DNA from: a bacterium
Lineage (GTDB): Bacteria; Elusimicrobiota; Elusimicrobia; Elusimicrobiales; UBA9959
Direction: 5' to 3'
NCBI GenBank assembly: GCA_021811315.1
Contig: JAJZPF010000002.1
Location: forward strand, 95,958-159,957
DNA length: 64,000 nucleotides
The translations under genes were made by a program, and so were the position numbers. The notes below the pieces were generated by a model. It did no database searches. It saw only the letters and a list, made by a program, of their open reading frames with translations, and was not told where the DNA came from. Positions 27,903 to 62,904 of this stretch are shown here, piece after piece (positions within the stretch are counted from its first letter, which is position 1; the number at the start of each line of letters is the position of its first letter).

Positions 27903-27989
27903 GTCGAGAGTCGTGGGTCAGGAGTCGGGAGTCCCGGGAGTTAAAATTCCCTGCCCCTGACTCTCGACCCTCGACTCCCGACTCTCGAC
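27903..27989. repeat. Long imperfect hairpin built from GAGTCG-like short repeats in the gcvH-gcvPA spacer
   Basis: Left arm GTCGAGAGTCGTGGGTCAGGAGTCGGGAGTCCCGGGAG (27903-27940). Right arm CTGCCCCTGACTCTCGACCCTCGACTCCCGACTCTCGAC (27951-27989). About 27 of 38 positions are complementary, including the outer 11 bp. The loop is AT-rich. Confidence 0.7.
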
Positions 27990-28010
27990 TCTTCTTCTTC
28001 AGGAGCCCCC

Positions 28011-29342
28011 ATGTATATCCCGCATACGAAAAAAGATAAAGAGGAGATGCTTAAAGCGATAGGCGCCTCCTCGTTCGAGGACCTCGTAAAACAGGTCCCC
28101 TCTAAATTTCTCTGGCCTAAATTGAACCTGCCGGGCGAAAGCCTGGACGAGTCCCAGGCCGCCGCGCTGCTCTCCGGCCTCGCCGGGAAGAATTGCCGCC
28201 CGCTGAACTTCCTCGGCGCCGGCGCCTACGAGCGCTACACCCCGGCCGCGGTCAAGGCTATCACCTCCCGCACCGAATTCCTCACCGCCTACACGCCCTA
28301 CCAGCCCGAGGCCAGCCAGGGCACGCTGCAGGCCATCTACGAATTCCAGAGCACGGTCTCCGCGCTCTACGGCATGGACTGCGCCAACGCCTCCATGTAC
28401 GACGGGGCCAGCTCCTTCGCCGAGGCGGTCCGCGCCGCCGTGCGCGTCACCGGCCGGAAGAAGATCGTCTACGCCGCCGGCGTGAACCCGCAGTACATGG
28501 ACACGCTGAAGACCTATTTCGCGCACTCCCCGGAATACTCCTACGTCAAGGTTCCCATGAAAGACGGCGCTATGGACAAAGCCGCCCTGCCCGCCCTGCT
28601 CGAAGGCGCGGCCTGCCTGGCCGTACAGACGCCCAACTTCCTCGGGCTCATAGAAGACATGTCAGGCGTAGCGGAAACCGCGAAGAAAGCCGGAGCGCTG
28701 CTGGTGGCCGCCGCCGACCCGGTAAGCCTCGGCATCCTGGCGACCCCCGGCGAGTACGGGGCCGATTTCGCCGTCGGCGAGGGCCAGAGCCTCGGCCTGC
28801 CGCTCGCTTACGGCGGGCCCTACCTGGGCCTGTTCTCCTGCAAAAAAGAGCACGTGCGCCAGATGCCCGGCCGCATCTGCGGCCTTACCAAGGACAAGGA
28901 CGGAAAGCGCGGCTTCGTGCTGACGCTGCAGGCCCGCGAGCAGCATATACGCCGGGACAAAGCCGCCTCCAACATCTGTTCCAACGAGGCGCTCTGCGCC
29001 CTGGCCGCCACCGTCTATTCGGCGCTCTACGGCCCCGAAGGCCTGAAAGAACTCGCCGAGGCCAACTCCGGCGCGGCCGCGTTCGCCGCCGAGCGCCTCG
29101 CCGGGATAAAGGGCGTCTCTCTCAAGTTCAAAGGCCCTTTCTTCAACGAGTTCGTCGTCTCGGTACCCGGCAGCGCCGCCAAGCTGCGCGAAAAGGTCCT
29201 CGCCGCCCGCGGCGTCGACATAGGCCTGCCGCTGGCCCCGCTCTACCCGGAGCTCGGTGAAACCCTGCTGGTCTGCGCCACCGAGACCAAGACCGAAGCC
29301 GATATCCTGAAACTGGAAGCCGCCATAAAGGAGGCCCTATGA
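28011..29342 (+). CDS. gcvPA: Glycine dehydrogenase (decarboxylating) subunit 1
   Basis: 443 aa; FLGAGAYE, TAYTPYQPEASQGTLQ motifs; followed by subunit 2 with a 4-nt overlap. Confidence 0.92.
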   Translation: MYIPHTKKDKEEMLKAIGASSFEDLVKQVPSKFLWPKLNLPGESLDESQAAALLSGLAGKNCRPLNFLGAGAYERYTPAAVKAITSRTEFLTAYTPYQPEASQGTLQAIYEFQSTVSALYGMDCANASMYDGASSFAEAVRAAVRVTGRKKIVYAAGVNPQYMDTLKTYFAHSPEYSYVKVPMKDGAMDKAALPALLEGAACLAVQTPNFLGLIEDMSGVAETAKKAGALLVAAADPVSLGILATPGEYGADFAVGEGQSLGLPLAYGGPYLGLFSCKKEHVRQMPGRICGLTKDKDGKRGFVLTLQAREQHIRRDKAASNICSNEALCALAATVYSALYGPEGLKELAEANSGAAAFAAERLAGIKGVSLKFKGPFFNEFVVSVPGSAAKLREKVLAARGVDIGLPLAPLYPELGETLLVCATETKTEADILKLEAAIKEAL

Positions 29343-30784
29343 TCTGCTCCGTCACCGACAACAGCCTCAGCATAGAGAAATCCGACGCCGGGCGCCGCGG
29401 CCTGTGCTGCAAGAACCCGCTGCGCGCCAAAGCGAATGTTCCGGCCAACCTGCGCCGCAAGTCCCCCCTGCGCCTGCCGGAGCTCTCCGAGTTCGACGTA
29501 GTGCGCCATTATACGCGCCTGTCCCGGCTTAACTTCTCGGTGGACACCCATTTCTACCCGCTGGGCTCCTGCACGATGAAGTACAACCCGCGCTTCAACG
29601 AGGAAGCCGCGGCGCTCGAGGGCTTCGCGGCCCTGCACCCGCTCGCGCACGACACCTGCGCGCAGGGCACGCTGGAACTGCTCCACGACCTGTCCGCCCG
29701 GCTGACCGAACTGTGCGGCCTGGACGCGATCACGCTGCAGCCCGCCGCCGGAGCGCACAGCGAGTTCACCGGCCTGCTGCTGGCCAAGGCCTACTTCGAG
29801 GCCAAAGGCGAGAACCGCACCGAGATCGTCTGCCCCGACTCCGCGCACGGAACCAATCCCGCCACCGCGTCGATGATGGGCTTTACCACCGTCAACCTGG
29901 CCTCCAAGCCGGACGGCCGCCTTGACGTAGAAGAGCTGAAGAAGCATATCGGCCCGAAGACGGCCGTGCTGATGCTGACCATGCCCAATACGCTCGGGAT
30001 CTTCGAAAGCAACATCGAGGCCATCGCCAAGGCCGTGCACGACGCGGGCGCCCTGTTCTACATGGACGGCGCCAACCTCAACGCCCTGATCGGCATGGTG
30101 AAACCCGGCGACTTCGGCGTGGACCTGATGCACCTGAACTTCCACAAGACCTTCTCCACCCCGCACGGCGGCGGCGGCCCCGGCGCCGGCGCGATAGTCT
30201 GCAGCAAGGCCCTCGCCCCGTTCCTGCCCGTCCCGACGGTGAAAAAGTCAGGAAGCGGCTACGTCTCCGACTTCGGCGACGGCCGCAGCATCGGGAAAGT
30301 GAAGGCCTTCTTCGGCAATACCGGCATCCTGGTGCGCGCTTACGCCTACATGCTGGCGCATTCGGCGGCGGAGTTCGGCGACATCGCCCGCTGCGCCATA
30401 ATCAACGCGAACTACGTGCGCTCCCTGCTGATGGACATCTACCCGTCGTACTCCAAGGAATACTGCATGCACGAATGCGTCCTGACCCCCGGCGCGGACA
30501 TGACGGCCAAAGGCCTGAAAACGCTGGACGTGGCCAAAGGCCTGCTCGACCGCGGCTTCCACGCCCCGACCATCTACTTCCCGACCATCGTCCACGAGGC
30601 GATAATGATCGAGCCGACCGAAACAGAGTCCAAAGAGACGCTGGACGAATTCGTAGCAGCCATGAGGGACATACACGACGCCGGCATAGCGGACCCCCAG
30701 AAACTCAAGGACGCCCCGCACACCATGCCGGTGAAACGCCTGGATGAAGTACAGGCCGCAAGGCAGCCGAATTTACACTGGTAG
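29339..30784 (+). CDS. gcvPB: Glycine dehydrogenase (decarboxylating) subunit 2
   Basis: 481 aa; HLNFHKTFSTPHGGGGPG (PLP-lysine region) typical of GcvPB. Confidence 0.92.
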   Translation: MICSVTDNSLSIEKSDAGRRGLCCKNPLRAKANVPANLRRKSPLRLPELSEFDVVRHYTRLSRLNFSVDTHFYPLGSCTMKYNPRFNEEAAALEGFAALHPLAHDTCAQGTLELLHDLSARLTELCGLDAITLQPAAGAHSEFTGLLLAKAYFEAKGENRTEIVCPDSAHGTNPATASMMGFTTVNLASKPDGRLDVEELKKHIGPKTAVLMLTMPNTLGIFESNIEAIAKAVHDAGALFYMDGANLNALIGMVKPGDFGVDLMHLNFHKTFSTPHGGGGPGAGAIVCSKALAPFLPVPTVKKSGSGYVSDFGDGRSIGKVKAFFGNTGILVRAYAYMLAHSAAEFGDIARCAIINANYVRSLLMDIYPSYSKEYCMHECVLTPGADMTAKGLKTLDVAKGLLDRGFHAPTIYFPTIVHEAIMIEPTETESKETLDEFVAAMRDIHDAGIADPQKLKDAPHTMPVKRLDEVQAARQPNLHW

Positions 30785-30796
30785 CTGACGGGCGCC

Positions 30797-31063
30797 GCAT
30801 GGGCCGGAACGCAAAACGCGTTCGGGCACACCGTGCCCTCACTCCGTGTTCGCCCGCCGGGCTATGCAACCGGCGGGCTCTCCGAGGGTTTTGCTAACCC
30901 GGCCCATGCGTCACCCTGATTTAGCTGGTAAGTACAAGTAGACTTGCCGGTTGACGAGGTGACAGGGTTAGCAAAACCCTCTCGGAAGGCGAGGCTTGCG
31001 TAAGCGCCGAGCCTGAGAGCGGGAGTGCCGAGCACGGTGTGCGAGAGCACGTTTTTGCGTTCC
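30797..31063. repeat. Intergenic structured repeat, copy A: two inverted units forming a roughly 260-bp imperfect palindrome
   Basis: Outer arms 30806-30846 and 31020-31063 are imperfect reverse complements. Exact 15-mer inverted repeat GGGTTTTGCTAACCC (30886-30900) / GGGTTAGCAAAACCC (30965-30979). Internal hairpins GGGCACACCGTGCCC (30824-30838) and GCCCGCCGG-9nt-CCGGCGGGC (30852-30878). The left unit is itself bracketed by GCATGGGCCGG (30797-30807) / CCGGCCCATGC (30899-30909). Confidence 0.8.
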
Positions 31064-31102
31064 TGTCACCTTGGCAACCGGCTCACTAGTCGCGACCGAA
31101 TC

Positions 31103-31804
31103 ATGAAAAAAGCTCTTATTATCGAAACCCCCCCTCTTGACGTGTACGGGCAGATGGCGGCGGACGAGGCGCTTTGCGAGACCATGCCGGCGCCTTTTTT
31201 GCTGCGATTTTATAACTGGAAAGAGCCGGGCGTGACTTTCGGCTATTCGCAGCGGCGCAAAGCGGTGGCCGAGGCCATGGCGGCGGCGGGCTGCGCGATA
31301 AAAGCGGTTACAAGACGGCCCACGGGCGGCGGGATAGTCTTCCACGAGACCGACCTCACCTTTTCCTTCATCTTCCCCTCCCCCGGCGCCTATTTCGAGC
31401 CCGGCAAGACCTATGACCGCCTGCACCGCGCCATAACAGCGGAATATTCCCGGCAGGGGATAGGCTTCGACCTCCTGAGCGAAAAGACCAAGGACTATGC
31501 GGTGAACGACCCGGTCATGAGCTGCTTCGCCAAACCGGTCAACATGGATATATTGTATAATGGAAAAAAAGTACTTGGAGGGGCCCTCCGCAAGTTCGGA
31601 GGACATATGCTCTACCAGGCCTCCTTCCAGGCCCCGGACGCGCGCAGCAATTCCGCCCTGCACAGGAACGCGGTAATTAAAGCTTTAGGCGGAGAATTCG
31701 GGCTGGAGTGGGAAGCCGCCGGGATACAGGAAGAGGCCCGCTCGAAAGCCGTAACGATAGCGGAAACCAAGTACCGCACCCCGGAGTGGAACGAAAGAAT
31801 ATAG
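31103..31804 (+). CDS. Lipoate-protein ligase/octanoyltransferase family protein (BPL/LPL catalytic domain)
   Basis: 233 aa from ATG 31103 (MKKALIIETPP...). RPTGGGIVFHE and GKKVLGGALRKF motifs of the LplA/LipM family. The track ORF start (GTG 31025) lies inside the repeat element. Confidence 0.75.
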   Translation: MKKALIIETPPLDVYGQMAADEALCETMPAPFLLRFYNWKEPGVTFGYSQRRKAVAEAMAAAGCAIKAVTRRPTGGGIVFHETDLTFSFIFPSPGAYFEPGKTYDRLHRAITAEYSRQGIGFDLLSEKTKDYAVNDPVMSCFAKPVNMDILYNGKKVLGGALRKFGGHMLYQASFQAPDARSNSALHRNAVIKALGGEFGLEWEAAGIQEEARSKAVTIAETKYRTPEWNERI

Positions 31805-31819
31805 CTTACTGGAGGAAAC

Positions 31820-32050
31820 ATGATAGCTTTTGTGCTTTGCAAACTCGTGGCCGGCCTTGAACAGAAAGCCGTGCAGCAGATAAAGAACATCCGCGGCGTC
31901 AAAGACGTCTATATGACCTTCGGCGGCTGGGACGCCATCCTGGTGACCGAATCCGACACCATCGACAAACTGAGCGGCCTGATAGTGCGCGAAGTGCGCG
32001 GCATCCACGGGGTGCAGACCACCGAAACGCTGGTCACCACCAACATATAA
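31820..32050 (+). CDS. Stand-alone Lrp/AsnC-type ligand-binding (RAM-like) domain protein
   Basis: 76 aa. The pattern MIAFVLCKL...IKNIRGVKDVYMTFGGWDAILVTE...IHGVQTTETLV matches AsnC-type C-terminal domains. Confidence 0.6.
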   Translation: MIAFVLCKLVAGLEQKAVQQIKNIRGVKDVYMTFGGWDAILVTESDTIDKLSGLIVREVRGIHGVQTTETLVTTNI

Positions 32051-32077
32051 GCTCCGACGGGTATCAAAGGTAAATAA

Positions 32078-32506
32078 ATGGAAAACACTTCCGTATTCGG
32101 CAAGCCCGCCGACAAGCTGATCCTGATCGTCGACGACGACGATTCGGTAAGGGAACTCATCGAGTTCATAGTCAAGAAAGAAGGCTTCCGGATCGAGAAA
32201 GCTTCCGACGGAGAAGAGGCGCTGAGCAAGGCCCGCACCACCAACCCGGACCTGATACTCCTGGACCTGATGCTGCCCAAGTTCGGCGGCTTCGAGATAC
32301 TGCGCGAGCTCCAGAGCGACGAGACGGGCACCATCCCGATAGTCATAATTACCGGGCGCTATACCGACCGCTCGACCTCCGACATGATAAAGCAGGAGCC
32401 CAACGTGCGGGATTTCATAGAGAAGCCCGTCAAGCCGCAGATCCTGACGTCCCTGATCCACAAACTCCTTAAAACCCAGCCCGTGCTGAGGAAGATGGGG
32501 AACTGA
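32078..32506 (+). CDS. Single-domain response regulator (receiver)
   Basis: LILIVDDDDSVRELI ... DLILLDLMLPKFGGFEIL ... IPIVIITG ... EKPV: canonical CheY-like motifs. Confidence 0.85.
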   Translation: MENTSVFGKPADKLILIVDDDDSVRELIEFIVKKEGFRIEKASDGEEALSKARTTNPDLILLDLMLPKFGGFEILRELQSDETGTIPIVIITGRYTDRSTSDMIKQEPNVRDFIEKPVKPQILTSLIHKLLKTQPVLRKMGN

Positions 32507-32509
32507 AGC

Positions 32510-32956
32510 ATGCCCCTGAAGCGCCCGAAGGCCTGGATCGCCATAGCGGTCCCGGCCTTTTTTCTGCTCGCCGCGGGGGACCTGGCGCTGCGCTCGCGCG
32601 GCGCGCTGCTCAGGGCGGAGCAGGAAGAGTCCTGGCGCGACAACCCCGGCGCTAAAAAAGCGTATTTCGAGAACCTTTACTCGGGAAAAAACGCGTCCGG
32701 CGGGGACGCCGCGGCGGAGTCCCCCGAAGCCGCGGCCCGGGCGGCGAACCTGAAGGCCGCGGAGCTGGAATTCCGCGTCTCCGAAAGCTCCGCGAAAATG
32801 GCCTATGTCTGGTACAAGACCGCCGCGCAGGATTTCTACCTGCCGTTCAACCCCTGGGCCGACAAGGCCCGGGCCCGGCTTCCCGCCGCGCTGGCCGCCT
32901 GGCGCGCCGAACTCGAAGCCAAAGGCGTTAAAGTCGAAGAGTGGATGATAAAGTAG
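32510..32956 (+). CDS. Hypothetical membrane-anchored protein (148 aa)
   Basis: N-terminal hydrophobic segment followed by an Ala-rich soluble part. No family recognised. Confidence 0.4.
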   Translation: MPLKRPKAWIAIAVPAFFLLAAGDLALRSRGALLRAEQEESWRDNPGAKKAYFENLYSGKNASGGDAAAESPEAAARAANLKAAELEFRVSESSAKMAYVWYKTAAQDFYLPFNPWADKARARLPAALAAWRAELEAKGVKVEEWMIK

Positions 32957-32979
32957 GCCGGCGGCCCTGAGCCAGCGTA

Positions 32980-33675
32980 ATGCGAGCGATAAAACCCCTC
33001 ATAGGAATAGCACTTGCGCCGGCCGCGCTGGCCGCGGCCTGGGCTACGGCCGCTATCCTGGCCCCCGCCCTGGGAAAATTCAGCGTCACCCTGCCCCTGC
33101 TCTGCGGAGCGCTGGCCTGCCTGCTGTTCCACTGGGGCGGCCGCGGAAAGGGCCTGTACGTAACGGCCCACGAACTTACCCACGCGCTGGCCGCGGTGTT
33201 CAGCGGCGTGCGGGTGCGGAAGATCTCGGTAAAGAAGCACAGCGGCTACGTGCTGCTCGATTCGACGAACGCCTTCATCTCGCTGGCCCCCTATGTCATT
33301 CCCCTCTATACCCTCGCCGTCGCGGCGGCCTATTGGCTGGCCGGGCGCTTCTGGAACGCCGCCCCGCTGAGGCCCTGGTTCCTCGCCGCGGCCGGCTTCA
33401 CGCTGGCCTTCCACCTGCTGCACACGGCGGACATCCTCTCCGGCCCGGTACAGAGCGACCTGAAGAAGGCCGGCGGCCCGGTGTTCTCTATCCCGCTTCT
33501 CCTGCTGCTCAACTGCCTCGCGCTGGCCGCGGCGATAAAAATGCTTTTTCCCGGGCTCCTGAGCATGCGGGCTTACTCGGCGCGCGTCCTGGAGGCGCAG
33601 GGCGAAGCCTACCGGGGGCTCCTCTCCGCCGCCGCATACGTCTTCAATACTGCTAAAATATACTTTACCCGATGA
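32980..33675 (+). CDS. Polytopic membrane protein with HExxH motif (putative membrane metalloprotease-like, DUF3267/M50-like)
   Basis: 231 aa with HELTHALAA after the second hydrophobic segment and several TM helices. Assignment is tentative. Confidence 0.45.
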   Translation: MRAIKPLIGIALAPAALAAAWATAAILAPALGKFSVTLPLLCGALACLLFHWGGRGKGLYVTAHELTHALAAVFSGVRVRKISVKKHSGYVLLDSTNAFISLAPYVIPLYTLAVAAAYWLAGRFWNAAPLRPWFLAAAGFTLAFHLLHTADILSGPVQSDLKKAGGPVFSIPLLLLLNCLALAAAIKMLFPGLLSMRAYSARVLEAQGEAYRGLLSAAAYVFNTAKIYFTR

Positions 33676-36448: not shown

Positions 36449-36468
36449 CGCGTAAGGTCCCAAGGTTC

Positions 36469-36497
36469 GAAGGCCGGTTATCTTTTCCCCGGCCTTC
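36469..36497 (+). other. Stem-loop after the PRTase gene (9-bp stem, no T-tract)
   Basis: GAAGGCCGG (36469-36477) pairs with CCGGCCTTC (36489-36497). Confidence 0.5.
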
Positions 36498-36515
36498 TCC
36501 GCCCCTCAGTTTATT

Positions 36516-37301: not shown

Positions 37302-37303
37302 TT

Positions 37304-41502: not shown

Positions 41503-41615
41503 AGGGTCGCCTCCCCAAAAAAATACCCCGCGTCCGCGTTGGCAAGCAGGGGTCTTGCAAGTAATTTTAACACATAAAAGCTCGCCGTGTAAAATCCGCC
41601 GCCCGCCGCGAGTTT

Positions 41616-42725: not shown

Positions 42726-42744
42726 GTTCCAGGCCGGCCTGTCC

Positions 42745-44913: not shown

Positions 44914-44950
44914 AGTACTCCTATAATATTGTTTTCCGCGAGATGCCCAG

Positions 44951-45092
44951 TCGGGGGCCTGGCAAGGGTATGGGCCCGTCGCTCACGGCGTCGCGCACAC
45001 CGTGCGCGCGCCTCCCCTCTCGGCCCTCGCGCTTATGCAAGCTCGGGCCTCCGAGAGGTCGCTCCGAACCCATACCCTTGCCACCCCTCCGA
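44951..45092. repeat. Intergenic structured repeat, copy B: single unit with the purine-rich strand in the mRNA sense of the pur operon
   Basis: Perfect 14-bp closing inverted repeat GGCAAGGGTATGGG (44961-44974) / CCCATACCCTTGCC (45069-45082). Core aligns block-by-block with the copy-A units (GCGCACACCGTGCGC at 44993-45007; GCTTATGCAAGC; CCTCTCGG/CCGAGAGG at 45016-23/45051-58). Fills most of the 185-bp purM-purNH spacer. Confidence 0.8.
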
Positions 45093-48753: not shown

Positions 48754-49019
48754 GGGCTTGCAACTAAATATTATGACCATCTGGCTGAGCTGATTTTGGA
48801 ACGAGACGAAGCGGCGTGAAGCGACGCGTACTACATGTACGCTAGCGGAACGCCGCGAAGGCGCAGCCCAAAAGCAGCCAGCCCCCCGGGGGAGGCCCAT
48901 CTTTGAACCGGCTACTGCGTTGCTCCTCACTCACAGACCACCAGTATGCTCGCTCGTCGCGCCTTGCATCCGGTTCAAATATGGGCCTCCAGATGGTCAT
49001 AATATTTAGTTGCAAGCCC
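48754..49019. repeat. Intergenic structured repeat, copy C: perfect 31-bp AT-rich inverted repeat enclosing two inverted core units
   Basis: GGGCTTGCAACTAAATATTATGACCATCTGG (48754-48784) is the exact reverse complement of 48989-49019. An inner 21-bp inverted repeat (20/21) lies at 48891-48911 / 48970-48990. Core blocks are shared with copy E: 48856-48880 vs 62846-62870 (22/25), and 48947-48967 reverse-complemented vs 62797-62817 (20/21). The element spans exactly from the purQ stop codon to 13 nt before the purF ATG. Confidence 0.9.
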
Positions 49020-49759
49020 TATCCGACGTAATCCACCGCGTTCTTGAAGAACTGGTACCCCGCGGCCGCGGCTTCCCGGGCGGCGGCGGGCCGGTCCGGG
49101 TTCTGCCAGGCGAAGAAGTTCCGCTCCGGGTGCGGCATCAGGCCGAAGCAGGTCCCCGCGGCATTGGTTATGCCGGCGATATCAAGCATGGAGCCGTTGG
49201 GGTTTTCCGAATAGGTCATGGCGTGGAGTTCGCGCGCGGTCAGGTCCGCCATTATTTTTTTGTCCTCCACGATGAACTTCCCCTCGCCGTGAGCGATAGG
49301 CAGCTCTATCTCTTCCGGGAGGCCCTTAGTGAAAATGCAGGGGCTCTTTTTATTGATCCTTACTTTTACCCACTTGGCCAGGAAATGGCCGCAGTCGTTG
49401 GTATAAAGCGTGGAAACCTGCGCGTTCCCTTTATTCTCTGGCAGGAAGCCGGTCTTCACAAGTATCTGGAAACCGTTGCAGATGCCGATGACCGGCCTTT
49501 TATCCTTGATGAAAGCCCCGAAATCCGCCGAGAGGCGGCTCATCTTCACCGCGTAGATCTTGCCGGCCGAGATATCGTCGCCGTAAGAGAAGCCGCCGGG
49601 GAAGGCCATCAGGGAATAATCCAGGACCTTTTTCTCCCCGGACAGAAGCTGGTTTATATGGACCAGTTCCGGCTCAGCTCCGACGTATTTAAAGGAATTG
49701 AAAGTTTCAATGTCGCAGTTAGTGGCGGTGCCCCGCAGGATTATGGCTTTGGGCTTCAT
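49019..49759 (-). CDS. purQ: FGAM synthase, glutamine amidotransferase subunit
   Basis: 246 aa; catalytic GICNGFQIL and HGEGKF motifs. Confidence 0.92.
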   Translation of the reverse strand: MKPKAIILRGTATNCDIETFNSFKYVGAEPELVHINQLLSGEKKVLDYSLMAFPGGFSYGDDISAGKIYAVKMSRLSADFGAFIKDKRPVIGICNGFQILVKTGFLPENKGNAQVSTLYTNDCGHFLAKWVKVRINKKSPCIFTKGLPEEIELPIAHGEGKFIVEDKKIMADLTARELHAMTYSENPNGSMLDIAGITNAAGTCFGLMPHPERNFFAWQNPDRPAAAREAAAAGYQFFKNAVDYVG

Positions 49760-52596: not shown

Positions 52597-52617
52597 TTGT
52601 ATACCTTAATTACGGCC

Positions 52618-52758
52618 GAAAAGTTTCTGATGAAACTTTTTCCTCGCATAGCTCGGACACTTCGTGCGGCATACACCCTTTCGGACCTGGCGCGCATAGC
52701 GCTTGGTCCTCGACCCTGCCGCCTTCGGCGTCCGGGGAATTCTGCAAATGCAGAATTC
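52618..52758. repeat. Structured purC-purS spacer (copy D, possible diverged family member)
   Basis: Hairpin AAAAGTTTC-TGAT-GAAACTTTT (52619-52640). Hairpin GAATTCTGCA-AA-TGCAGAATTC (52737-52758). The pyrimidine-rich middle, when reverse-complemented, contains CGAAGGCGGCAGG, GCGCTATGCGCGC and GCCGCACGAAGTGTCCGAG, which resemble core blocks of copies A/B/C/E. Confidence 0.5.
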
Positions 52759-52786
52759 GGGGTAAAAGAAGCCGCCGGGCGGCACT

Positions 52787-54225: not shown

Positions 54226-54370
54226 AGTCACCTCTTTATAGGAACTGGTGGGGTTATGACCGCGATATTATTCTATGATTTTAAGACCTCCGGCACAAAT
54301 CCAGGGGCTTTTCCCCGTCGCGGGAGCGCAATACCGCGTACTACGCTTATTTATCCGGGCCGGAAGGCCC

Positions 54371-54399
54371 TTGACATTCCTGATTTGTATTAGTATAGT
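54371..54399 (+). promoter_or_regulatory. Sigma-70-type promoter upstream of hcp (TTGACA-17 nt-TATAGT)
   Basis: TTGACA at 54371-54376, 17-nt spacer, TATAGT at 54394-54399, about 50 nt upstream of the hcp ATG. An imperfect palindrome GTATTAGTATAGTTATAC (54387-54404, 14/18 symmetric) overlaps the -10. Confidence 0.6.
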
Positions 54400-54451
54400 T
54401 ATACCAGATTGCTAGTTACACCGAATTCAAACTAAACCAGGAGAATACTAA

Positions 54452-56125: not shown

Positions 56126-56137
56126 ACAGGATAAAAA

Positions 56138-56167
56138 GGGCGGAGGCCGGCGAAGCCCCCTCCGCCC
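56138..56167 (+). other. GC-rich stem-loop between hcp and the NifU-like gene (no T-tract)
   Basis: GGGCGGAGG (56138-56146) pairs with CCTCCGCCC (56159-56167). Confidence 0.55.
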
Positions 56168-56191
56168 TCTCGATCTAAAGGAGATACATCT

Positions 56192-56434
56192 ATGAACGAC
56201 TCGACTGAACTAAAGAAAAAAGTGGAAGCCGCGCTGGCGGAAGTCAGGCCTTACCTCGAAGCCGACGGCGGCGGCGTAGAGCTCGTAGCCGTGGACGCGG
56301 CCTCAAAAACAGTGAAGGTGCGCCTGATAGGCGGCTGCGCCTGCTGCCCCTCGGCGGGCATGACGCTGAAGAACGGCGTCGAGGCGGCCATCAGGAAGAC
56401 CGCGCCGGAAATAAAGAGCGTAGTGGCCGTGTAG
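56192..56434 (+). CDS. NifU C-terminal-domain-like Fe-S scaffold protein
   Basis: 80 aa; LAEVRPYLEADGGGVELV ... GGCACCPSAGMTLKNGVE motif (CxxC). Confidence 0.85.
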   Translation: MNDSTELKKKVEAALAEVRPYLEADGGGVELVAVDAASKTVKVRLIGGCACCPSAGMTLKNGVEAAIRKTAPEIKSVVAV

Positions 56435-56448
56435 AACGGAGGCAGCCC

Positions 56449-57255
56449 ATGGACAGATACCTTGAGCAGAACATTAAAGACATCATCTCCAAGTACCCCG
56501 GAGTAGGAGATATCCTTAACGAATACAAGATCGGGTGCACCGCCTGCGCGGCCGGGACCTGCCGTCTCAAGGATATAGTTGAGATCCATAACCTCCCGGG
56601 CCCGGAAGAAGAGAAGCTGATGGGCAGGATAGCCCTCGCCATCTCTCCCGAGGGCGGGCTCAGGGTTCCCAAGAGCTCCAGGAAAGCGGCCGCGCCTTCC
56701 GGCGGGCTTAAGTATTCCCCGCCCCTGAAGAGGCTGGTGGACGAACACGCGCTTATAAAGCGCCTGCTGGCCCTGATCCCGCGGTTCGTCGCGGGCGTGG
56801 ACCTGGGGTCCGAAGAGGGCGCCGGCCTGGCGCGCGGCGGGCTGAAGTTCATCCGCGCCTACGCCGACAGATATCACCACGCGAAAGAAGAGGAGATCCT
56901 CTTTAAATATTTCGACGCCGAACTCGACGTGATCAAGGCCATGCTGCGGGACCATGTAAACGGGCGGGCCCATGTAAAAGCGGCCGAAGAAGCCCTGGCC
57001 GCGAAGGACGGGGCCGCGGCCGCGGAGCATTTCCTCGCCTACCGCGAACTGCTTACGGAACATATAAAGAAAGAGGACGAGATCCTCTACCCGTGGATGG
57101 ACAGGAACCTCTCGCTTAAGCAAGTCGGCGAACTGTTCAATAAATTTAACGAGGCGGACGAGAAATTCGAGCCGGCTCTTATCGCCGAGTGCGAGGCGGT
57201 AGTGACGGGCCTCGAGAAACTGCTCGGCGCCGCCGGGATAAGCGTGAAGGCCTGA
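56449..57255 (+). CDS. DUF1858/ScdA_N-like plus hemerythrin-like di-iron domain protein (RIC/YtfE-like)
   Basis: 268 aa. N-terminal small domain with CTACAAGTC. C-terminal HHAKEEEILF ... EHIKKEDEILYPW hemerythrin HHE-type motifs. Confidence 0.65.
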   Translation: MDRYLEQNIKDIISKYPGVGDILNEYKIGCTACAAGTCRLKDIVEIHNLPGPEEEKLMGRIALAISPEGGLRVPKSSRKAAAPSGGLKYSPPLKRLVDEHALIKRLLALIPRFVAGVDLGSEEGAGLARGGLKFIRAYADRYHHAKEEEILFKYFDAELDVIKAMLRDHVNGRAHVKAAEEALAAKDGAAAAEHFLAYRELLTEHIKKEDEILYPWMDRNLSLKQVGELFNKFNEADEKFEPALIAECEAVVTGLEKLLGAAGISVKA

Positions 57256-57257
57256 AC

Positions 57258-57947
57258 ATGGAGCAAGGAAGAAAGCCCGCGCCGTTCGTTTCCGGCTGTA
57301 ATGAAAGCGGGACCTGCCAGAATTCCCTGGGCGGGGCGCGCGGTTTGATAGCGCGGATGGAAGACCTGCTTGAAGAAGAAGGGCTAGCCGGCCGGATAGC
57401 GGAGCTGCTGCCGCAGCCGGGACTGGCCAGGCACGCTTTCAGGGCGGCGGTGGCGGAATGTCCCAACGCCTGTTCCCAGCCGCAGATAAAGGATTTCGGC
57501 GTCATTCAGGAAAGCCTCCCCGGGAAAAGCGGGGCAGAGTGCACGAAGTGCGGCCTATGCGTGAAGGCCTGCAGGGAGAAAGGCATAATTCTCGACGGAA
57601 CGGGGCCTTCGATAAATTTCGAACTATGCGCGCGCTGCGGAGCCTGCGTCAGGGCCTGCCCTACTGGGACGCTGCGGCCGGAGAAAAAAGGGTTTTCTAT
57701 CCTCGTAGGAGGAAGGCTGGGCCGCCACCCGCGGCTTGCGGTCCGGGCGCTGGAAATGACCGATGAAGAAGGCGTCCTGCTTGCGCTGAGAACCGCGGCC
57801 AGGGCCTATATCAGGGAAGGGCGGCCCGGAGAGCGGTTCGGCGACCTGGCCGACCGGCTCGGCATCGGACCGATAAAAGAGGAGATAGCAGCGGCCGTTA
57901 AAACCCGCGATTTTAATTTTCAGTTAAACAAGTCAGGAGGAAAATAA
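57258..57947 (+). CDS. Fe-S protein: nitrite/sulfite-reductase-like Cys motif plus 2x[4Fe-4S] ferredoxin motifs
   Basis: Start at ATG 57258. AECPNACSQPQIKD, CTKCGLCVKACREKG and CARCGACVRACPTG motifs. Confidence 0.65.
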   Translation: MEQGRKPAPFVSGCNESGTCQNSLGGARGLIARMEDLLEEEGLAGRIAELLPQPGLARHAFRAAVAECPNACSQPQIKDFGVIQESLPGKSGAECTKCGLCVKACREKGIILDGTGPSINFELCARCGACVRACPTGTLRPEKKGFSILVGGRLGRHPRLAVRALEMTDEEGVLLALRTAARAYIREGRPGERFGDLADRLGIGPIKEEIAAAVKTRDFNFQLNKSGGK

Positions 57948-57948
57948 T

Positions 57949-58443
57949 ATGGATAAAAAACACGCGCATGGCGGACATGAACCCTGCGGCTGCCCCGGGT
58001 CCAAGATGATGGACCTGCGGGAAGAAGCCCCCGCTGATTCCGGCCCCGCCGGGAAAGCCCCCTCGATGCTCCGGCAGTGGCCGGTGCAGCTGCACCTGAT
58101 CTCGCCGATGGCCCCCTATTTCCAGAAGGCCGACCTGGTGGTGGCGGCGGACTGCACGGCCTTCGCCTACGGGAATTTCCACGCCGAATTCCTGAAAGGC
58201 AGGGCGGCCGTGATAGCCTGTCCCAAGCTGGACGACGGCCAGGAAGTCTATGTAGAGAAGATCCAGGCCCTGATAGAGGACGCCAAGATCAATACGCTTA
58301 CCGTGCTGACGATGGAAGTTCCCTGCTGCGGCGGCCTGCTCGCCATGGTCCAGCAGGCGGCGCGCAACGCCAAAAGGAAAGTCCCGGTAAAGAGCATCGT
58401 GGTCGGCATAGGCGGGACGATCAAGAGCGAAGAGTGGGCTTGA
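57949..58443 (+). CDS. Cys-rich hypothetical protein (putative metal/Fe-S binding)
   Basis: 164 aa with the motifs HEPCGCPG, AADCTAFA, ACPKLD and EVPCCGG. Family not recognised. Confidence 0.45.
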   Translation: MDKKHAHGGHEPCGCPGSKMMDLREEAPADSGPAGKAPSMLRQWPVQLHLISPMAPYFQKADLVVAADCTAFAYGNFHAEFLKGRAAVIACPKLDDGQEVYVEKIQALIEDAKINTLTVLTMEVPCCGGLLAMVQQAARNAKRKVPVKSIVVGIGGTIKSEEWA

Positions 58444-58539
58444 CGGCGGGATGAACCGCGGGGCGCGCGCGCGATACTACGTATTGCCGCGGCCCGGCCA
58501 TTTCGGTAATATCACACTTATACGGGTTTGGAGGTTTTA

Positions 58540-60804
58540 ATGGAAGGTCTCAAAAAAGCGGCGATAGCGAGTTTCTTTATATCCATGGCGGTCCTGCTGG
58601 GCGGGGGCTGGCTGGCCATCGACAGGGTTCCCCCCTACCCGGCCCTGATCATAGCCAACGGGCAGGAAGTTTCAGGCAAGACGGAGATCATAAAAGGCCA
58701 GAACGCCTACCAGCGCTACGGCCTGATGGACCTGGGCAGCGTCTGGGGGCACGGGACCCTGCGCGGCCTCGATTTCTCCGCCGCCACGCTGAACCTCATG
58801 GGGCGCTATATGCGCGAATATTACGCCGAAAAGGCGGGAGGAACCTACGCCTCGCTCCATCCCGACGTCGCCGCCGCCATAGACTCTAGGGTCATAAGGG
58901 AAATAAAGACCAATAACTACAACAAGGTCACCGGCGTGCTTACGCTCGGAGAGTCCCAGGCTTACGCCTTCGCGAAAATAAAAGATTACTGGCGCGACGA
59001 GATGAACAACGGGAACAAGACCTACGGCCTGCAGGCCAAGGCCATGAAAGAAATAAGCGAAGCCCAGACCGTGGGCGACTTCTTTTTCTGGACCGCCTGG
59101 GCCGCCGGGACTTTAAGGCCCGGCGCCAACTCCACCTACACCAATAACTGGCCGCCGGACGCTAGCGTCGGGAACACGATGATGAGCGACGCGCTCCTCT
59201 GGAGCGTAGCCGGGATCTTCGCTTTCTTCGTAGTCCTGGGCATAGTCATCTACGCCGTCCACCGCTACAGGATCCTTTACGGCGAAGAGAAGGCCGTGCA
59301 GACCGGCGACGCCATGATGGAGCTGCCTCTGACTTTAAGCCAGGTCAGGGCGGCCAAGTTCTTCGTGGTCGTGACGGCTTTGTTCATACTGCAGACCTGC
59401 ATGGGCGGCCTGCTTGCGCATTACACCGTAAGCCCGGAGACTTTCTTCCCGGACTTCATAGCGACGCTGGTGCCCTACACCTGGGCGAAGAGCTGGCATC
59501 TGCAGCTCGCGATCTTCTGGATAGCCACCACCTGGATCGGCGCGTCCATCTACCTGGCCCCCGTTATCAGCGGCAAAGAGCCTAAAAACCAGGGCCTCCT
59601 GGTGAATATATTGTTCGGGGCCGTAGTGCTGGTAGCCGTAGGCAGCCTGGCCGGAACCGCGCTGGGGGCGAAGGGTTACTTCACCGACGCCACCTGGTTC
59701 TGGTTCGGCCACCAGGGCTGGGAATTCCTCGAATCGGGCAGGTTCTGGCAGTGGCTGCTCTTCGTGGGCCTGATCGCCTGGCTCGTCATCGTCTACCGCG
59801 GCATGAAGGACAAGCTCTTCGGGGCGGACTCGGACAAGAGCGGCGTGGTGATGTTCTACCTGGTGAGCGCGGTAATGGTGGTCGGTTTCTTCGGCTTCGG
59901 TTTCTTCTACGGGAAAGGCTCGCACCTGACGATAGCGGACTACTGGCGCTGGTTCGTCGTGCACCTGTGGGTCGAAGGCATCTTCGAGTTCTTCGGCGTG
60001 GCGATCATCTCCCTCTTCCTCGTGATGATGGGGCTGGTGAAAAAAGAATCGGCCATGCGGGTGGCGTATTTCAGCGCTATCCTCGTGTTCGCCAGCGGCA
60101 TCATCGGAACCGCGCACCATTACTTCTGGTACGGCGGGCCTTCCTACTGGCTGGCCCTGGGCGCGGTGTTCGCCTCCCTCGAGCCGATACCGATGATCCT
60201 GCTGGTGGTCCGGGCCTGGAAGGAATACCAGTCCATCCAGGACGCGGGCAAAGACTTCCCCTACCGCTGGCCGCTGTTCTTCCTGACGGCTTCCAGCTTC
60301 TGGAACTTCCTCGGCGCCGGGATGTTCGGGTTCTCCATCAACCTGCCCATAATCAATTATTATGAGCACGGGACCTACCTGACGGCGAACCACGGCCACG
60401 CGGCCCTGTTCGGAGTCTACGGGATGCTGTCGATCTCGCTGATGTTGTTCTCCTGGCGCTCGCTGGTCAAGAACGAGTACTGGAACAACGGCCTGCTGAA
60501 AGCGATCTTCTGGCTGCTGAACGGCGGGCTGCTCCTGATGGTGCTCTCCGTGCTCCTGCCCGAGGGATTGATCCAGACTTTCATGGTCTACAAGCACGGG
60601 GTCTGGTTCGCCCGGAGCCCGGAGTTCTACAATATGCCGGTCATCCTGGCGCTGAACAAGTTCAGGATAGTTCCCGACACGATAATAATACTCGGGGCGA
60701 CGCTCCTCGGCTGGTTCCTGGTCTCCACTTACTTCCGGATAAAGCCGGTGAAGTGCGGCGAGGGCGAGGATATCTACTACGGGAAGACCTGTAAAATGCT
60801 GTAA
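58540..60804 (+). CDS. norZ: Nitric oxide reductase large subunit, quinol-dependent (qNOR/NorZ-like)
   Basis: About 754 aa from ATG 58540 (GGAGG 6 nt upstream). Many TM helices; heme-copper-oxidase His motifs (HHYFWYG, NHGHAALFGVYGM). Has the N-terminal extension typical of single-subunit qNOR. Confidence 0.85.
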   Translation: MEGLKKAAIASFFISMAVLLGGGWLAIDRVPPYPALIIANGQEVSGKTEIIKGQNAYQRYGLMDLGSVWGHGTLRGLDFSAATLNLMGRYMREYYAEKAGGTYASLHPDVAAAIDSRVIREIKTNNYNKVTGVLTLGESQAYAFAKIKDYWRDEMNNGNKTYGLQAKAMKEISEAQTVGDFFFWTAWAAGTLRPGANSTYTNNWPPDASVGNTMMSDALLWSVAGIFAFFVVLGIVIYAVHRYRILYGEEKAVQTGDAMMELPLTLSQVRAAKFFVVVTALFILQTCMGGLLAHYTVSPETFFPDFIATLVPYTWAKSWHLQLAIFWIATTWIGASIYLAPVISGKEPKNQGLLVNILFGAVVLVAVGSLAGTALGAKGYFTDATWFWFGHQGWEFLESGRFWQWLLFVGLIAWLVIVYRGMKDKLFGADSDKSGVVMFYLVSAVMVVGFFGFGFFYGKGSHLTIADYWRWFVVHLWVEGIFEFFGVAIISLFLVMMGLVKKESAMRVAYFSAILVFASGIIGTAHHYFWYGGPSYWLALGAVFASLEPIPMILLVVRAWKEYQSIQDAGKDFPYRWPLFFLTASSFWNFLGAGMFGFSINLPIINYYEHGTYLTANHGHAALFGVYGMLSISLMLFSWRSLVKNEYWNNGLLKAIFWLLNGGLLLMVLSVLLPEGLIQTFMVYKHGVWFARSPEFYNMPVILALNKFRIVPDTIIILGATLLGWFLVSTYFRIKPVKCGEGEDIYYGKTCKML

Positions 60805-60832
60805 AAGAAACAGCTGAAGGCCGGACTTGAGA

Positions 60833-60874
60833 GCGGCAATAACAGGACTCCAGCGGGAGACTTGTTATTGCCGC
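60833..60874 (+). other. Stem-loop downstream of qNOR gene (12-bp stem, 18-nt loop)
   Basis: GCGGCAATAACA (60833-60844) pairs with TGTTATTGCCGC (60863-60874). No T-tract follows. Confidence 0.55.
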
Positions 60875-60884
60875 CTCGAATTTA

Positions 60885-60893
60885 TGGTACAAT
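60885..60893 (+). promoter_or_regulatory. Extended -10 (TGgTACAAT) 7 nt upstream of the rrf2 ATG (possible leaderless mRNA)
   Basis: TTATGGTACAATGTAGTATATG; no Shine-Dalgarno sequence is possible. Confidence 0.45.
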
Positions 60894-60900
60894 GTAGTAT

Positions 60901-61302
60901 ATGAGTACCATAATAAAGATCTCGGAGGCCGCGGTAATAGCCATCCACGCCGTGGGCCTAATCGCGAAGTCGGAAGGGAAGCCCTGCGCTACCAGGCATA
61001 TAGCCGGGGCGCTGGGCGTTTCCTATAACCACCTCACCAAGGTCCTGCAGCGCCTGACCCGCGCGGGGCTGCTGGTTCCGGGGCGCGGGCCGAAGGGCGG
61101 CTTTATCCTCTCTAAAAAAGCCAGGACCGCCAAGTTGCGGGACGTCTTTGAGGCCATAGACGGGAAGATGTCCCTTTCGACCTGCCTGATGAAATCCAGA
61201 TCCTGCGGGAAGCTAGGCTGCATCCTGGGGAACCTCCTCTCGGAAACCAACGACAGTTTCCGGGCGGCCATGGATAAAGGGATAGACGAACTTCTGAAGT
61301 AA
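60901..61302 (+). CDS. Rrf2-family transcriptional regulator (NsrR/IscR-like, three-Cys cluster site)
   Basis: 133 aa. wHTH region (RHIAGALGVSYNHLTKVLQRLTRAGLL) and CLMKSRSCGKLGC Cys triad. Confidence 0.88.
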   Translation: MSTIIKISEAAVIAIHAVGLIAKSEGKPCATRHIAGALGVSYNHLTKVLQRLTRAGLLVPGRGPKGGFILSKKARTAKLRDVFEAIDGKMSLSTCLMKSRSCGKLGCILGNLLSETNDSFRAAMDKGIDELLK

Positions 61303-61313
61303 AGCCGGGGACT

Positions 61314-62075
61314 ATGCCGCCTAAACGAAGCTTCCTTGAAGCAACCTACCTGCGCTACAATAAGCCGGAATTCATACACCCGGACCCGCTGGAATTCGTC
61401 TGGCGCTATAAAAGCCGCGCCGACCGGGAAATAGTCGGGCTCATAGCCGCCTGCCTGGCCTACGGCAATGTGACGCAGATACTTAAAAGCGTGGAAAAAG
61501 TTCTGGGCCCGATGGGGAGCTCCCCCGCCGCCTGGCTGAAAGCCGCCTCGCCGGCCGCTATCAAAAAGACTTTCGTTTCTTTCAAGCACCGCTTCACGAC
61601 CGGGGCCGAGATGGCCGTCTTCCTCCTTAATATAAAGCACGCTCTTGAAAAGCACGCCTCGCTGGAAAAACTGTTCCTGCAGGCTTACGACGAGGACGCG
61701 GCCACGGTGGAAGAAGCGATCTATGAATTCGTGAACAAATTCAACGCGCTTGGCTGCGCGCCTTCCCTGACCCCGTGCCCGGAGCACAAAAGCTCTTTCA
61801 AGCGCGTGAACCTCTACCTCCGCTGGATGGTAAGGAACGACGCGGTGGACCCCGGGGTCTGGACCGGGGTTTCCCCCTCCAAGCTGATCATACCGCTGGA
61901 CACCCATATGAGGCAGGTCTCGATGGGGATGGGCATAACAAAGAGGAAAGACACCTCCATGAAGACCGCCGCGGAGATCACGGCTTATTTCAGAAAGGTG
62001 GAACCGGCGGACCCGGTAAAGTACGATTTCGCGCTTACCCGCGCGGGCATACGCAGGAACAACGTAAAAGACTAG
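61314..62075 (+). CDS. TIGR02757/DUF2400 family protein
   Basis: 253 aa; PDPLEFVWRY, IAACLAYGNV, IPLDTHM motifs as I recall them for this family. Confidence 0.65.
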   Translation: MPPKRSFLEATYLRYNKPEFIHPDPLEFVWRYKSRADREIVGLIAACLAYGNVTQILKSVEKVLGPMGSSPAAWLKAASPAAIKKTFVSFKHRFTTGAEMAVFLLNIKHALEKHASLEKLFLQAYDEDAATVEEAIYEFVNKFNALGCAPSLTPCPEHKSSFKRVNLYLRWMVRNDAVDPGVWTGVSPSKLIIPLDTHMRQVSMGMGITKRKDTSMKTAAEITAYFRKVEPADPVKYDFALTRAGIRRNNVKD

Positions 62076-62170
62076 CGCTAAAGGTGAATTTTTGTAGAAT
62101 GTAATCTCTCGCAATTTTTTGTCGGTGGGGCCCGGCAGCGAGCCCCTAATCTGTCGGTCAGGAGGAAAAA

Positions 62171-62743
62171 ATGAACATAAAAGGATCCAAAACGGAGCAG
62201 AATCTGCTTGCCGCTTTCGCGGGAGAGTCGCAGGCCCGCAACCGCTATAGCTATTACGCGAGCGAAGCCAAGAAAGAGGGCTATGTGCAGATAAGCCTGG
62301 CTTTCGAGGAAACCGCCAACCAGGAAAAGCAGCATGCGAAGCGCTATTTCAAACTGCTGGAAGGCGGCGAAGCTACTATTACCGCAACTTTCCCGGCCGG
62401 AGTAATTGGCGACACAAAGGCCAACCTGAAGGCCGCGGCGGGCGGCGAGAATTTCGAGTGGACCACCCTGTATCCGGGTTTCGCGAAAATAGCCCGCGAA
62501 GAAGGCTTTGAGACGGCGGCCAAGACCTTTGAATTCATCTGCGTGGCCGAAAAGCAGCATGAAGCCCGCTACCTCGGTTTCCTGAAGAACCTCGAGGAAG
62601 GGAAAGTCTTCAAGAAGGACAAAAAGATTCGCTGGCGCTGCCTGGAGTGCGGCTATGTCCACGAAGGGGAAGGGGCCCCGGAGAAGTGCCCGGCCTGCGC
62701 CCATCCCAAAGCTTACTTCGAAATGCTCTGCGAGAACTGGTAG
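62171..62743 (+). CDS. rbr: Rubrerythrin
   Basis: 190 aa. Ferritin-like di-iron motifs (GESQARNRY, EEKQHAKRY, ENFEWT, EKQHEARY) and C-terminal rubredoxin-like CLECGYV...CPACAHP. Confidence 0.92.
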   Translation: MNIKGSKTEQNLLAAFAGESQARNRYSYYASEAKKEGYVQISLAFEETANQEKQHAKRYFKLLEGGEATITATFPAGVIGDTKANLKAAAGGENFEWTTLYPGFAKIAREEGFETAAKTFEFICVAEKQHEARYLGFLKNLEEGKVFKKDKKIRWRCLECGYVHEGEGAPEKCPACAHPKAYFEMLCENW

Positions 62744-62904
62744 CAGTCTCCTGATTAACCCTACTCGGTGTTATTTTGAGACGATTTTGTGACGAGGCAA
62801 GGCGCGAGGAGCGAGCAGGCTTGAAAGCCTGTAAGCGACGAGCAACGAAGCCGCAGGCCAAAAGCGGCCAAAAGAACCCGAAAGAGGGTTCATCAGTAGA
62901 CTGC
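62743..62904. repeat. Intergenic structured repeat, copy E: single unit with the purine-rich strand in the mRNA sense
   Basis: Closing inverted repeat GCAGTCTCCTGAT (62743-62755) / ATCAGTAGACTGC (62892-62904), 12/13 complementary. Internal hairpins CAGGCTTGAAAGCCTG (62816-62831), GCCGC-9nt-GCGGC (62850-62868) and GAACCC-GAAAGA-GGGTTC (62874-62891). Core blocks are shared with copy C. Spans from the rbr stop codon to the tpx RBS. Confidence 0.8.

Follow-up and report, generated by a model that had tools for sequence, protein, structure and literature searches.

Structured repeats occupy several operon spacers of the window, by which we mean the whole 64 kb (64,000 nt) stretch of elusimicrobial DNA analysed here (lineage UBA9959; contig JAJZPF010000002.1, positions 95,958 to 159,957). 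We give a probability of about 0.72 to the reading that these spacers are occupied by mobile repeats, selfish or near-neutral, which are small, do not code for protein, form hairpins, belong to at least three families without relation to one another and have colonised this elusimicrobial lineage. Comparison with close relatives showed that the elements are insertions that have been gained, lost and replaced, and their orientation relative to the flanking genes is random in both of the families that could be counted. The repeats are new elements of the MITE (miniature inverted-repeat transposable element) or REPIN-like kind, and family 1 alone falls outside the ordinary MITE description, with one of its two strands under constraint to fold.

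The units are 100-235 nt long, have no open reading frame (ORF) and are multi-copy. Three gene clusters carry the elements that are bracketed by named genes, and all gene names given in an earlier note on this DNA proved correct when checked by Pfam:

gcvT-H-PA-PB-(A)-lplA, plus strand: element A between gcvPB and lplA
purE-C-(D)-S-L-Q-(C)-F-D-M-(B)-NH, minus strand: elements D, C and B in pur operon spacers
rbr-(E)-tpx, plus strand: element E between rbr and tpx

The single elements are as follows, with matches to nhmmer or profile hidden Markov models (HMM) and fold z-scores against dinucleotide shuffles, which ranged from -2.8 to -8.2 over the units and bore out the claim that they are structured:

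A1, 30789..30917, minus strand: family-1 alpha type, three-way-junction hairpin; nhmmer E=4e-23; fold -78 kcal/mol, z=-5.9
A2, 30946..31082, plus strand: family-1 alpha type; nhmmer E=3e-30 (30947-31082); fold z=-5.0
B, 44936..45090, minus strand: family-1 beta type; nhmmer E=1e-29 (44952-45092); fold -99.7 kcal/mol, z=-8.2
C, 48754..49019, no strand assigned: composite insertion with perfect 31-nt inverted repeat ends (48754-48784 / 48989-49019)
C1, 48785..48887, plus strand: purine-rich rod-like hairpin; fold z=-4.3 on the plus strand
C2, 48888..48992, minus strand: family-2 unit; HMM E=9e-17 over 48910-48980; fold z=-5.8
D, 52616..52762, minus strand: member of another MITE family ("family 4"); triloop hairpins of the form NNGC-AUA-GCNN, small hairpins at the ends
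E, 62743..62904, plus strand: complete 162-nt family-2 element; HMM E=2e-15; inserted in the rbr stop codon
G, 27903..27989, plus strand: long hairpin with GAGTCG/CGACTC-type heptamers in the gcvH-gcvPA spacer; fold z=-7.0

The earlier note, which was made from the sequence alone, had taken seven related units for one family. Profile searches rule out a single homologous family, since in the 64 kb the family-1 HMM matches A2, B and A1 only, the family-2 HMM matches C2 and E only, and C1, D and G are matched by neither. The pairwise similarities behind that claim are real: 62797-62817 agrees with the reverse complement of 48947-48967 at 20 of 21 positions, a 12-nt block is common to A2 and B (31032-31043 and the reverse complement of 44994-45005), and both hairpins, GGGCAC-ACC-GTGCCC and GCGCAC-ACC-GTGCGC, were found as described. 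The same applies to the outer inverted repeats, which are complementary at 31 of 31 positions in C and even longer than had been claimed in B (15/15, 44960-74 / 45069-83) and E (18/20, 62743-62 / 62885-904), and to the purine-rich strand, whose purine fraction is 0.55-0.59 in A1, A2, B, C1, C2 and E. Further copies do exist outside the window, but they belong to several unrelated families.

Turnover, orientation and position of the insertions

Empty sites in close relatives mark the elements as insertions. The purQ-purF spacer, which holds C, measures 271 nt in the window and 3-12 nt in six relatives whose PurQ is 83-95% identical (95% in two of them), and the rbr-tpx spacer, which holds E, measures 173 nt in the window and 6-7 nt in two relatives (83% and 91%). 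Occupied sites turn over as well. At purM-purNH the window and the relative L006 (comparison loci are numbered with an L) carry a family-1 beta copy in the sense orientation, L004 carries a beta copy antisense, L002 and L086 carry a third core type described below and L045 yet another subtype, while in L025, whose DNA is 91-94% identical to that of the window, the whole spacer has been replaced by an antisense alpha copy. The gcvPB-lplA spacer of L119 contains an orthologue of A1 alone, in the same place and orientation, with A2 missing; this copy and A1 differ by compensatory stem changes, and their loops are conserved. Relatives also carry additional small repeats where the corresponding window sites are empty. 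Neither plasmids nor phages were found to carry copies. Among the sequences compared, L001 coincides fully with a part of the window, contributing no extra information, and the Elusimicrobia sequences are metagenome-assembled genomes (MAGs), in which binning errors are possible. The window also comes from a MAG, of the Elusimicrobiales, and PurQ homologues with 74-87% identity are assigned to Elusimicrobia.

The cores could in principle have been inserted into hairpins that were already present, for instance terminators, and this origin was rejected for C and E: the empty C and E sites of relatives are 3-12 nt long and contain no palindrome, and the conserved features of the closing helix (the GACG/TGGC A·G mismatch) disfavour it too.

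In the window the elements had appeared to lie always inside operons with the purine-rich strand in the mRNA sense. This holds for the few window copies but not family-wide. Approximate counts for family 1 gave 32 sense, 36 antisense, 23 convergent and 10 divergent copies, plus 4 apparently within ORFs (sense against antisense, binomial p=0.72), and for family 2, in GC-rich loci, 10 sense, 12 antisense, 9 convergent and 5 divergent. Therefore, the pattern seen in the window is a small-sample impression.

The tight fit between the stop codon and the ribosome-binding site (RBS) probably follows from gene density. About 92% of the genome is coding and operon spacers are just 3-12 nt long, so that insertions elsewhere would destroy genes and the surviving elements look wedged between stop and RBS. 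At the C and E sites relatives read ...TAA followed by an A-rich RBS, and the window reads TA[G...C]AAAGG; both elements thus lie within the TAA stop of the upstream gene (purQ and rbr, respectively), and the first G of the element rebuilds a TAG stop, which leaves the upstream protein unchanged, while the downstream RBS is untouched. Three independent MITE insertions on TAA stops were noted, two in the window (49019-49021 and 62741-62743) and one in L025 (~3070-3230). Scarcity of TTAA or TAA outside stop codons was considered as the cause of this position and rejected, as 68 of the 78 TTAA between 26 and 63 kb lie inside genes. Given that such targets are common in genes, the position reflects an A/T-rich target together with loss of gene-breaking insertions.

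Structure and distribution of families 1 and 2

Family 1 was searched for in a one-genome-per-species collection with an exact pattern built from its two conserved loops, GCTTGCRTA(N)GCGC...CACGGTGTG, for which a few matches are expected by chance. It was found at 115 loci or more, several per genome and all but one in Elusimicrobia MAGs; the sole match from outside Elusimicrobia stands at a contig end. A profile HMM recognised 144 copies in these loci. Copy numbers for both families are lower bounds and the sampled copies are biased to intact cores, because exact-pattern scans retrieved them.

Family-1 units of ~130-160 nt fold on their purine-rich strand into a closing helix of 15-25 bp, a short helix and a three-way junction with two arms. 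The short helix is GCAAAA/UUUUGC in the alpha type and GA-GC-GA/GA-GC-GA in the beta type; the first arm is capped by UUGCRUAAGC, a loop that does not vary, and is interrupted by an internal loop of tandem G·A, and the second ends in CAC-GGU-GUG. Loops and junction are nearly invariant and the stems vary. In 55 non-redundant alpha copies, 34 of the 47 consensus pairs show double (compensatory) changes, and 90.1% of the cells are canonical or G·U compared with 71.7% (standard deviation 0.5) in column shuffles, a control that overstates significance because the copies are phylogenetically related. The closing helix is hypervariable, with 54 distinct versions of a 12-nt segment among 56 copies and a mean identity of 0.41, and is still 84% Watson-Crick. 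It also keeps a conserved A·G mismatch (GACG/YGGC).

One folded strand of family 1 is under constraint. Mismatches are asymmetric between the strands: the 1469 cells of the closing helix contain 129 G·T and 22 A·C, and the whole structure has 83 and 22, respectively; the resulting ratio of about 4-6:1 is an upper bound, as some G·U pairs are inherited and not independent. Strand-biased mutation cannot explain this asymmetry because copies occur in both orientations. The purine-rich strand folds better than its complement in 120 of 127 copies, by a mean of 9.8 kcal/mol. Covarying stems had been read as selection on structure, and for family 1 this reading partly holds, but the idea of an operon-internal processing or translation-coupling module in place of mobile DNA does not stand: orientation is random, copies lie between convergent and divergent genes, sites are empty in relatives and one spacer holds different elements in turn.

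The closing helices had also been described as specific to each locus. Their inner 12 nt are indeed nearly unique, but outer shells recur at many loci and around differing cores, for example GGAGGGGTGGC...GCCAGGCCCCCGACTGGGCATCTCGCGG (the S1 shell) and GGCGGAGACC...GGTAGGCCGCC. S1-shell copies have defined non-palindromic ends (GGAGGGG... / ...CTCGCGG) whose flanking bases are not duplicated. B sits in such a shell, in mRNA sense, in the purM-purNH spacer, and closely similar relatives of B lie at unrelated loci in the MAGs L020, L049 and L077. A third type of core, GGGGARGGG-hairpin-GGAACCGCGCAACGGTTCCC-GCAGTCC, resembles family 1 in the layout of its two arms and shares outer shell and spacers with family-1 copies, an arrangement suggestive of modular exchange between shells and cores. 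This core was seen at the following places:

L002, 13877-14023: third core type
L006, 13348-13553: third core type
L086, 4373-4523: third core type
L092, ~3000-3150: third core type

Family-1 copies also form doublets. Of 20 adjacent pairs less than 150 nt apart, 19 are head-to-head, with the purine-rich 5' ends facing each other, and A1/A2 (window 30789-31082) is among them. The purine-rich strand of A1 is antisense to gcvPB-lplA and begins a few nt past the gcvPB TAG stop; A2 has a closing helix at 30946-30966 / 31062-31082 whose arms are complementary at 19 of 21 positions, including the conserved mismatch in the form GACG/TGGC. Other head-to-head pairs are found, for example, in L013, L017, L072, L079, L104, L105 and L112 (loci L008-L122), and the linker between paired copies is partly conserved in one MAG. 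A small GGAGCGAAGCGACA motif, which contains a GCGAAGC mini-hairpin, was observed inside some family-1 copies and beside others (L008, L041, L079, L036, L057, L114).

Family 2 is different in both its structure and its range. Its core is rod-shaped, with tandem G·A (GA/GA) internal loops separated by one or two G-C pairs and a variable hairpin at the apex, and the rod forms on the purine-rich strand only. The search was made in Joint Genome Institute (JGI) metagenomes with an exact 22-nt pattern taken from both rod strands, and returned at least 120 loci of 38-73% GC, many of the matches being at contig ends. One host is Myxococcota-like, with ~80% identity to Polyangiales/Sandaracinaceae proteins, and an HMM search of ~0.9 Mb of other Elusimicrobia DNA found no copy. 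The rod is nearly unchanged while termini and host composition vary, although 22 of its positions were enforced by the search pattern, so that the apparent conservation of the core is inflated; conservation beyond the pattern is seen in the flanking CAAGGC and in GUGAGCGAC inside the gap.

Full copies of family 2 are mostly 156-172 nt long, end in long terminal inverted repeats, each sub-group having its own, and, in the metagenomes, are flanked by direct TTA, TAA, TCA or CTAG. Family 2, that is C2 and E, consists of classical MITEs. E matches the metagenome MITEs in size and layout, with terminal inverted repeats at 62743-62762 / 62885-62904 (18/20) and a central G·A/G-C rod at ~62794-62864. 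C is a composite that carries C1 and C2 on opposite strands. Within it C2 has a closing repeat of its own (48891-48911 / 48970-48990) and is 73% identical to E over 71 nt, and C1 is only loosely related to the family, sharing with E just one 25-nt stretch (48856-48880 against 62846-62870) that matches at 22 of 25 positions, as had been reported.

Other repeats and neighbouring features

Family 4, represented in the window by D, is a classical MITE with conserved termini and a target-site duplication. Its sole relative found lies in L025 (3103-3199, 74% identity over 97 nt, E=3e-15), where it stands at the stop codon of purNH with TTAA on either side; the corresponding site of the window (42726-42744) is empty and contains TTAA once. 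Next to D, directly after the purC stop, there is a short G+C hairpin GCCGCCCGGCGGC with a T run (window 52763-52783, minus strand) that is conserved in relatives with and without D (L002 6644-6682 and the equivalents in L004 and L006), and this hairpin may attenuate or terminate transcription within the pur operon.

G is unrelated to the other families. It is an inverted repeat of 36 nt with 78% complementarity, and its 3' arm consists of 4.9 tandem copies of GACTCTC (Tandem Repeats Finder, period 7). Single-arm runs of the G heptamer (CGACTCY) stand just upstream of RBSs in two Elusimicrobia MAGs (L067 ~7530-7555, L094 ~2037-2073), and the heptamer run could be a repeated protein-binding leader motif.

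A further family ("family 5") was noted in relatives, with units of ~45 nt (GGCCGTCYGATGAGCATAGCTC...GGGCATAGCCC) that also have NNGC-AUA-GCNN triloop hairpins (L119 2902-3109, L025 4436-4523). The units stand in tandem 3-4 times in one relative, and the window sites at 31805-31809 and 41515-41520 are empty. The units contain a hammerhead-like CUGAUGAG that is not followed by a GAAA box, and a hammerhead reading was set aside.

Apart from the repeats, the window has a CRISPR array at 42-412 with 6 copies of the 32-nt repeat GTTTCAATCCCCGCCCCTGTGCGAGGGGCGAC. Beside it, at 879-9389 on the minus strand, lie cas1, cas4, cas7/csd2, csd1 (cas8c), cas5d and cas3, a type I-C set whose G+C content at third codon positions (0.42-0.57) is below that of the rest of the window (~0.8). 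A protein with a Bro-N domain adjoins cas3.

Mobilisation, alternative explanations and relation to known systems

Termini and duplications suggest for families 2 and 4 a cut-and-paste transposase, acting in trans and duplicating TNA, TTAA or CTAG, an enzyme that we take to be IS5-family/Harbinger-like given the TNA/TWA targets of those groups. Family 1 may move differently. Its purine-rich strand would be recognised in single-stranded form by a putative trans-acting enzyme, as are REP/REPIN or IS200/IS605 ends, and only copies whose top strand still folds would propagate, so that selection among copies for mobilisation could keep the fold. Under this mechanism conserved loops, covarying hypervariable stems and head-to-head doublets would result from fold-dependent propagation with no function for the host, and if the hairpins affect host operons at all, for instance by blocking exonucleases or by being processed, this would come as a by-product.

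Several results weigh against mobile, selfish repeats. The enzymes were not seen: phmmer with E. coli RayT, a distant query, was run on 4360 ORF segments from the ~1 Mb that surrounds family-1 copies and found nothing at E<=10, no transposase was present among the 30 window proteins scanned, and the loci fetched around small copies contained no full-length parent insertion sequence (IS) with the same termini. Family 1 has no terminal sequence common to all copies and no target duplication, and C and E in the window lack a clean 3-nt duplication, their flanks being xTA and AAA. Family-1 orientation does not follow GC skew (positive in 58 of 129, sign test non-significant); a link of orientation to replication was rejected on this result, and a bias might have fitted a lagging-strand mechanism with single-stranded DNA. 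Two further observations would also fit a host function, since each of the seven genomes seen has an element between purM and purNH and the fold of A1 is kept in L119 across ~17% DNA divergence of the flanking genes. Lastly, the genome-context counts come from a crude GC-frame gene caller that recovered most known window genes, and its calls are approximate.

A more specific claim, which we put forward tentatively and regard as doubtful, is that the family-1 purine-rich strand and the family-2 rod are functional folded nucleic acids and not passive palindromes, either the substrate recognised by a novel single-strand mobilisation system of Elusimicrobia or a structured RNA cargo, protein-binding or catalytic. 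The second of these options leads to the first alternative to selfish repeats, namely that the conserved cores are candidate functional RNAs (a small RNA, a ribozyme or a protein-binding RNA) made from the purine-rich strand, and that they travel as the cargo of mobile shells. The invariance of family-1 loops and junction amid variable stems would suit it, as would a family-2 core that stays nearly the same in MITEs with unrelated termini and in hosts of 38-73% GC, one of them Myxococcota-like, the formation of the rod on the purine-rich strand only, the occurrence of differing cores in one outer shell, and the 19 of 20 doublets whose purine-rich 5' ends face a short linker. However, no match to a sigma-70 promoter was found before GGAGGGG or in the A1-A2 linker, and terminators were likewise absent at the copies examined. 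Rfam 15 returned no described family at the gathering threshold, nor at E<=5-10 with the whole region and single units, barring two matches in E whose scores (13.8 and 11.2 bits) are below the threshold and at the level of chance. The retrieval with an exact 22-nt pattern inflates the apparent conservation of family 2, and tandem G·A motifs are stable in single-stranded DNA too. Taken together, we consider an RNA cargo unlikely.

Slightly less probable still is a role as host-selected cis-acting RNA modules that set mRNA processing, differential stability or translational coupling in operons. This would account for stems that covary with the purine-rich strand favoured, for B and E in the mRNA sense with the RBS left free, for a purM-purNH spacer that is filled in 7 of 7 genomes, and for the retention of A1 at the orthologous L119 site with compensatory changes. 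But 36 of the 68 family-1 copies between co-directional genes are antisense and 33 more lie between convergent or divergent genes. Close relatives have a sense copy, an antisense copy or an unrelated element in the same spacer, conservation of context is lacking, C is absent from six relatives and E from two whose spacers measure 3-12 nt, and the same kind of site is used by three unrelated families. Very improbable, finally, are DNA-level host sites like the REP/BIME of E. coli (cruciforms bound by gyrase, IHF or nucleoid proteins) with palindromy kept by quasipalindrome correction: the long near-perfect inverted repeats, intergenic and in both orientations, would agree with such sites, and arm correction by template switching, as in quasipalindrome mutagenesis, gives paired double changes with no RNA involved, but these processes are strand-symmetric whereas G·T and A·C mismatches stand at 129 to 22, A·G mismatches and tandem G·A loops have remained uncorrected, and presence or absence between near-identical strains speaks against a required host site.

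Mobile repeats that are selfish or near-neutral are thus the reading we prefer, and it bears on more than this window. The repeats are undescribed: they have no match in Rfam, and a search of the literature found nothing about repeats of Elusimicrobia or the core sequence of family 2. For annotation it matters that assemblies are broken by these repeats, of which there are dozens per genome (many family-2 matches are at contig ends), and that an annotator can take them for leaders of the riboswitch type, in Elusimicrobia as in other uncultured lineages. Compact operons evidently tolerate such insertions, as C and E hit a TAA stop, rebuild a stop and spare the RBS. Family 1, being outside the usual mobile classes, points to a putative mobilisation system that recognises single strands, and the family-2 rod, shared by a Myxococcota-like genome, Elusimicrobia and low-GC hosts, is a candidate functional module.

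Among known systems, classical bacterial MITEs whose target duplications contain TA are the closest to families 2 and 4. Examples of this kind are derivatives of the IS5 family (IS1031/ISL2/IS427 groups, TNA targets), the Correia elements of Neisseria and ERIC; Correia and ERIC insert between cistrons, form hairpins in read-through RNA and alter mRNA processing. Families 2 and 4 likewise measure 130-235 nt, end in long terminal inverted repeats, carry duplications of 3-4 nt (TTA, TAA, TCA, CTAG, TTAA), have empty sites in relatives, insert between cistrons and would give a long hairpin in read-through RNA. The earlier note had held that random orientation with conserved termini and target duplications would indicate an ordinary MITE, and this is largely what was observed: orientation is random in families 1 and 2, and family 2, within its sub-groups, and the D-like copies have conserved termini and target duplications. 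Family 1 has no conserved termini, though some of its outer shells recur. Families 2 and 4 depart from described MITEs in that family 2 keeps its rod in sub-families whose termini are unrelated and in very different hosts, that no parent IS occurred among the fetched loci, and that C and E in the window show no clear duplication.

Integron attC sites resemble these repeats as folded single-stranded sites in which structure is conserved more than sequence, the strand is chosen via mismatches and the position follows an upstream stop codon. They differ in that the elements described here are flanked by core metabolism genes (gcv, pur), have random orientation and keep sequence-conserved core loops; no RYYYAAC / GTTRRRY boxes were seen in the sequences read and no integrase was noted, neither having been formally searched. 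IS200/IS605 ends and the PATE mini-elements derived from them are imperfect hairpins that are recognised strand-specifically as single-stranded DNA and lack terminal inverted repeats and target duplication, which fits the S1-shell copies with their defined, non-palindromic ends. However, the left end of S1-shell copies has no conserved tetra- or pentanucleotide target, the RayT query revealed no Y1 transposase in the ~1 Mb around copies, and orientation has no GC-skew bias.

For family 1 there remains the comparison with REP/BIME and the REPIN-RAYT system of Enterobacteria and Pseudomonas. These are also lineage-restricted, extragenic, multi-copy hairpins that occur as singles and inverted doublets, as in the 19 of 20 family-1 pairs, and they further agree in forming mosaics of several motifs in one spacer, in a hairpin that is maintained for long, in lacking a target duplication and in lying within operons after stop codons. 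Unlike the simple hairpins of REP, which have 20-40 nt, family-1 units are three-way junctions of ~130-160 nt with hypervariable closing helices, and they have no GTAG/CGTC tag common to all copies, GGTAGG being restricted to the S2 shell subtype. The REPIN-RAYT pairing differs in its enzyme, as no RAYT homologue was found near the loci of family 1, at least 115 in number.

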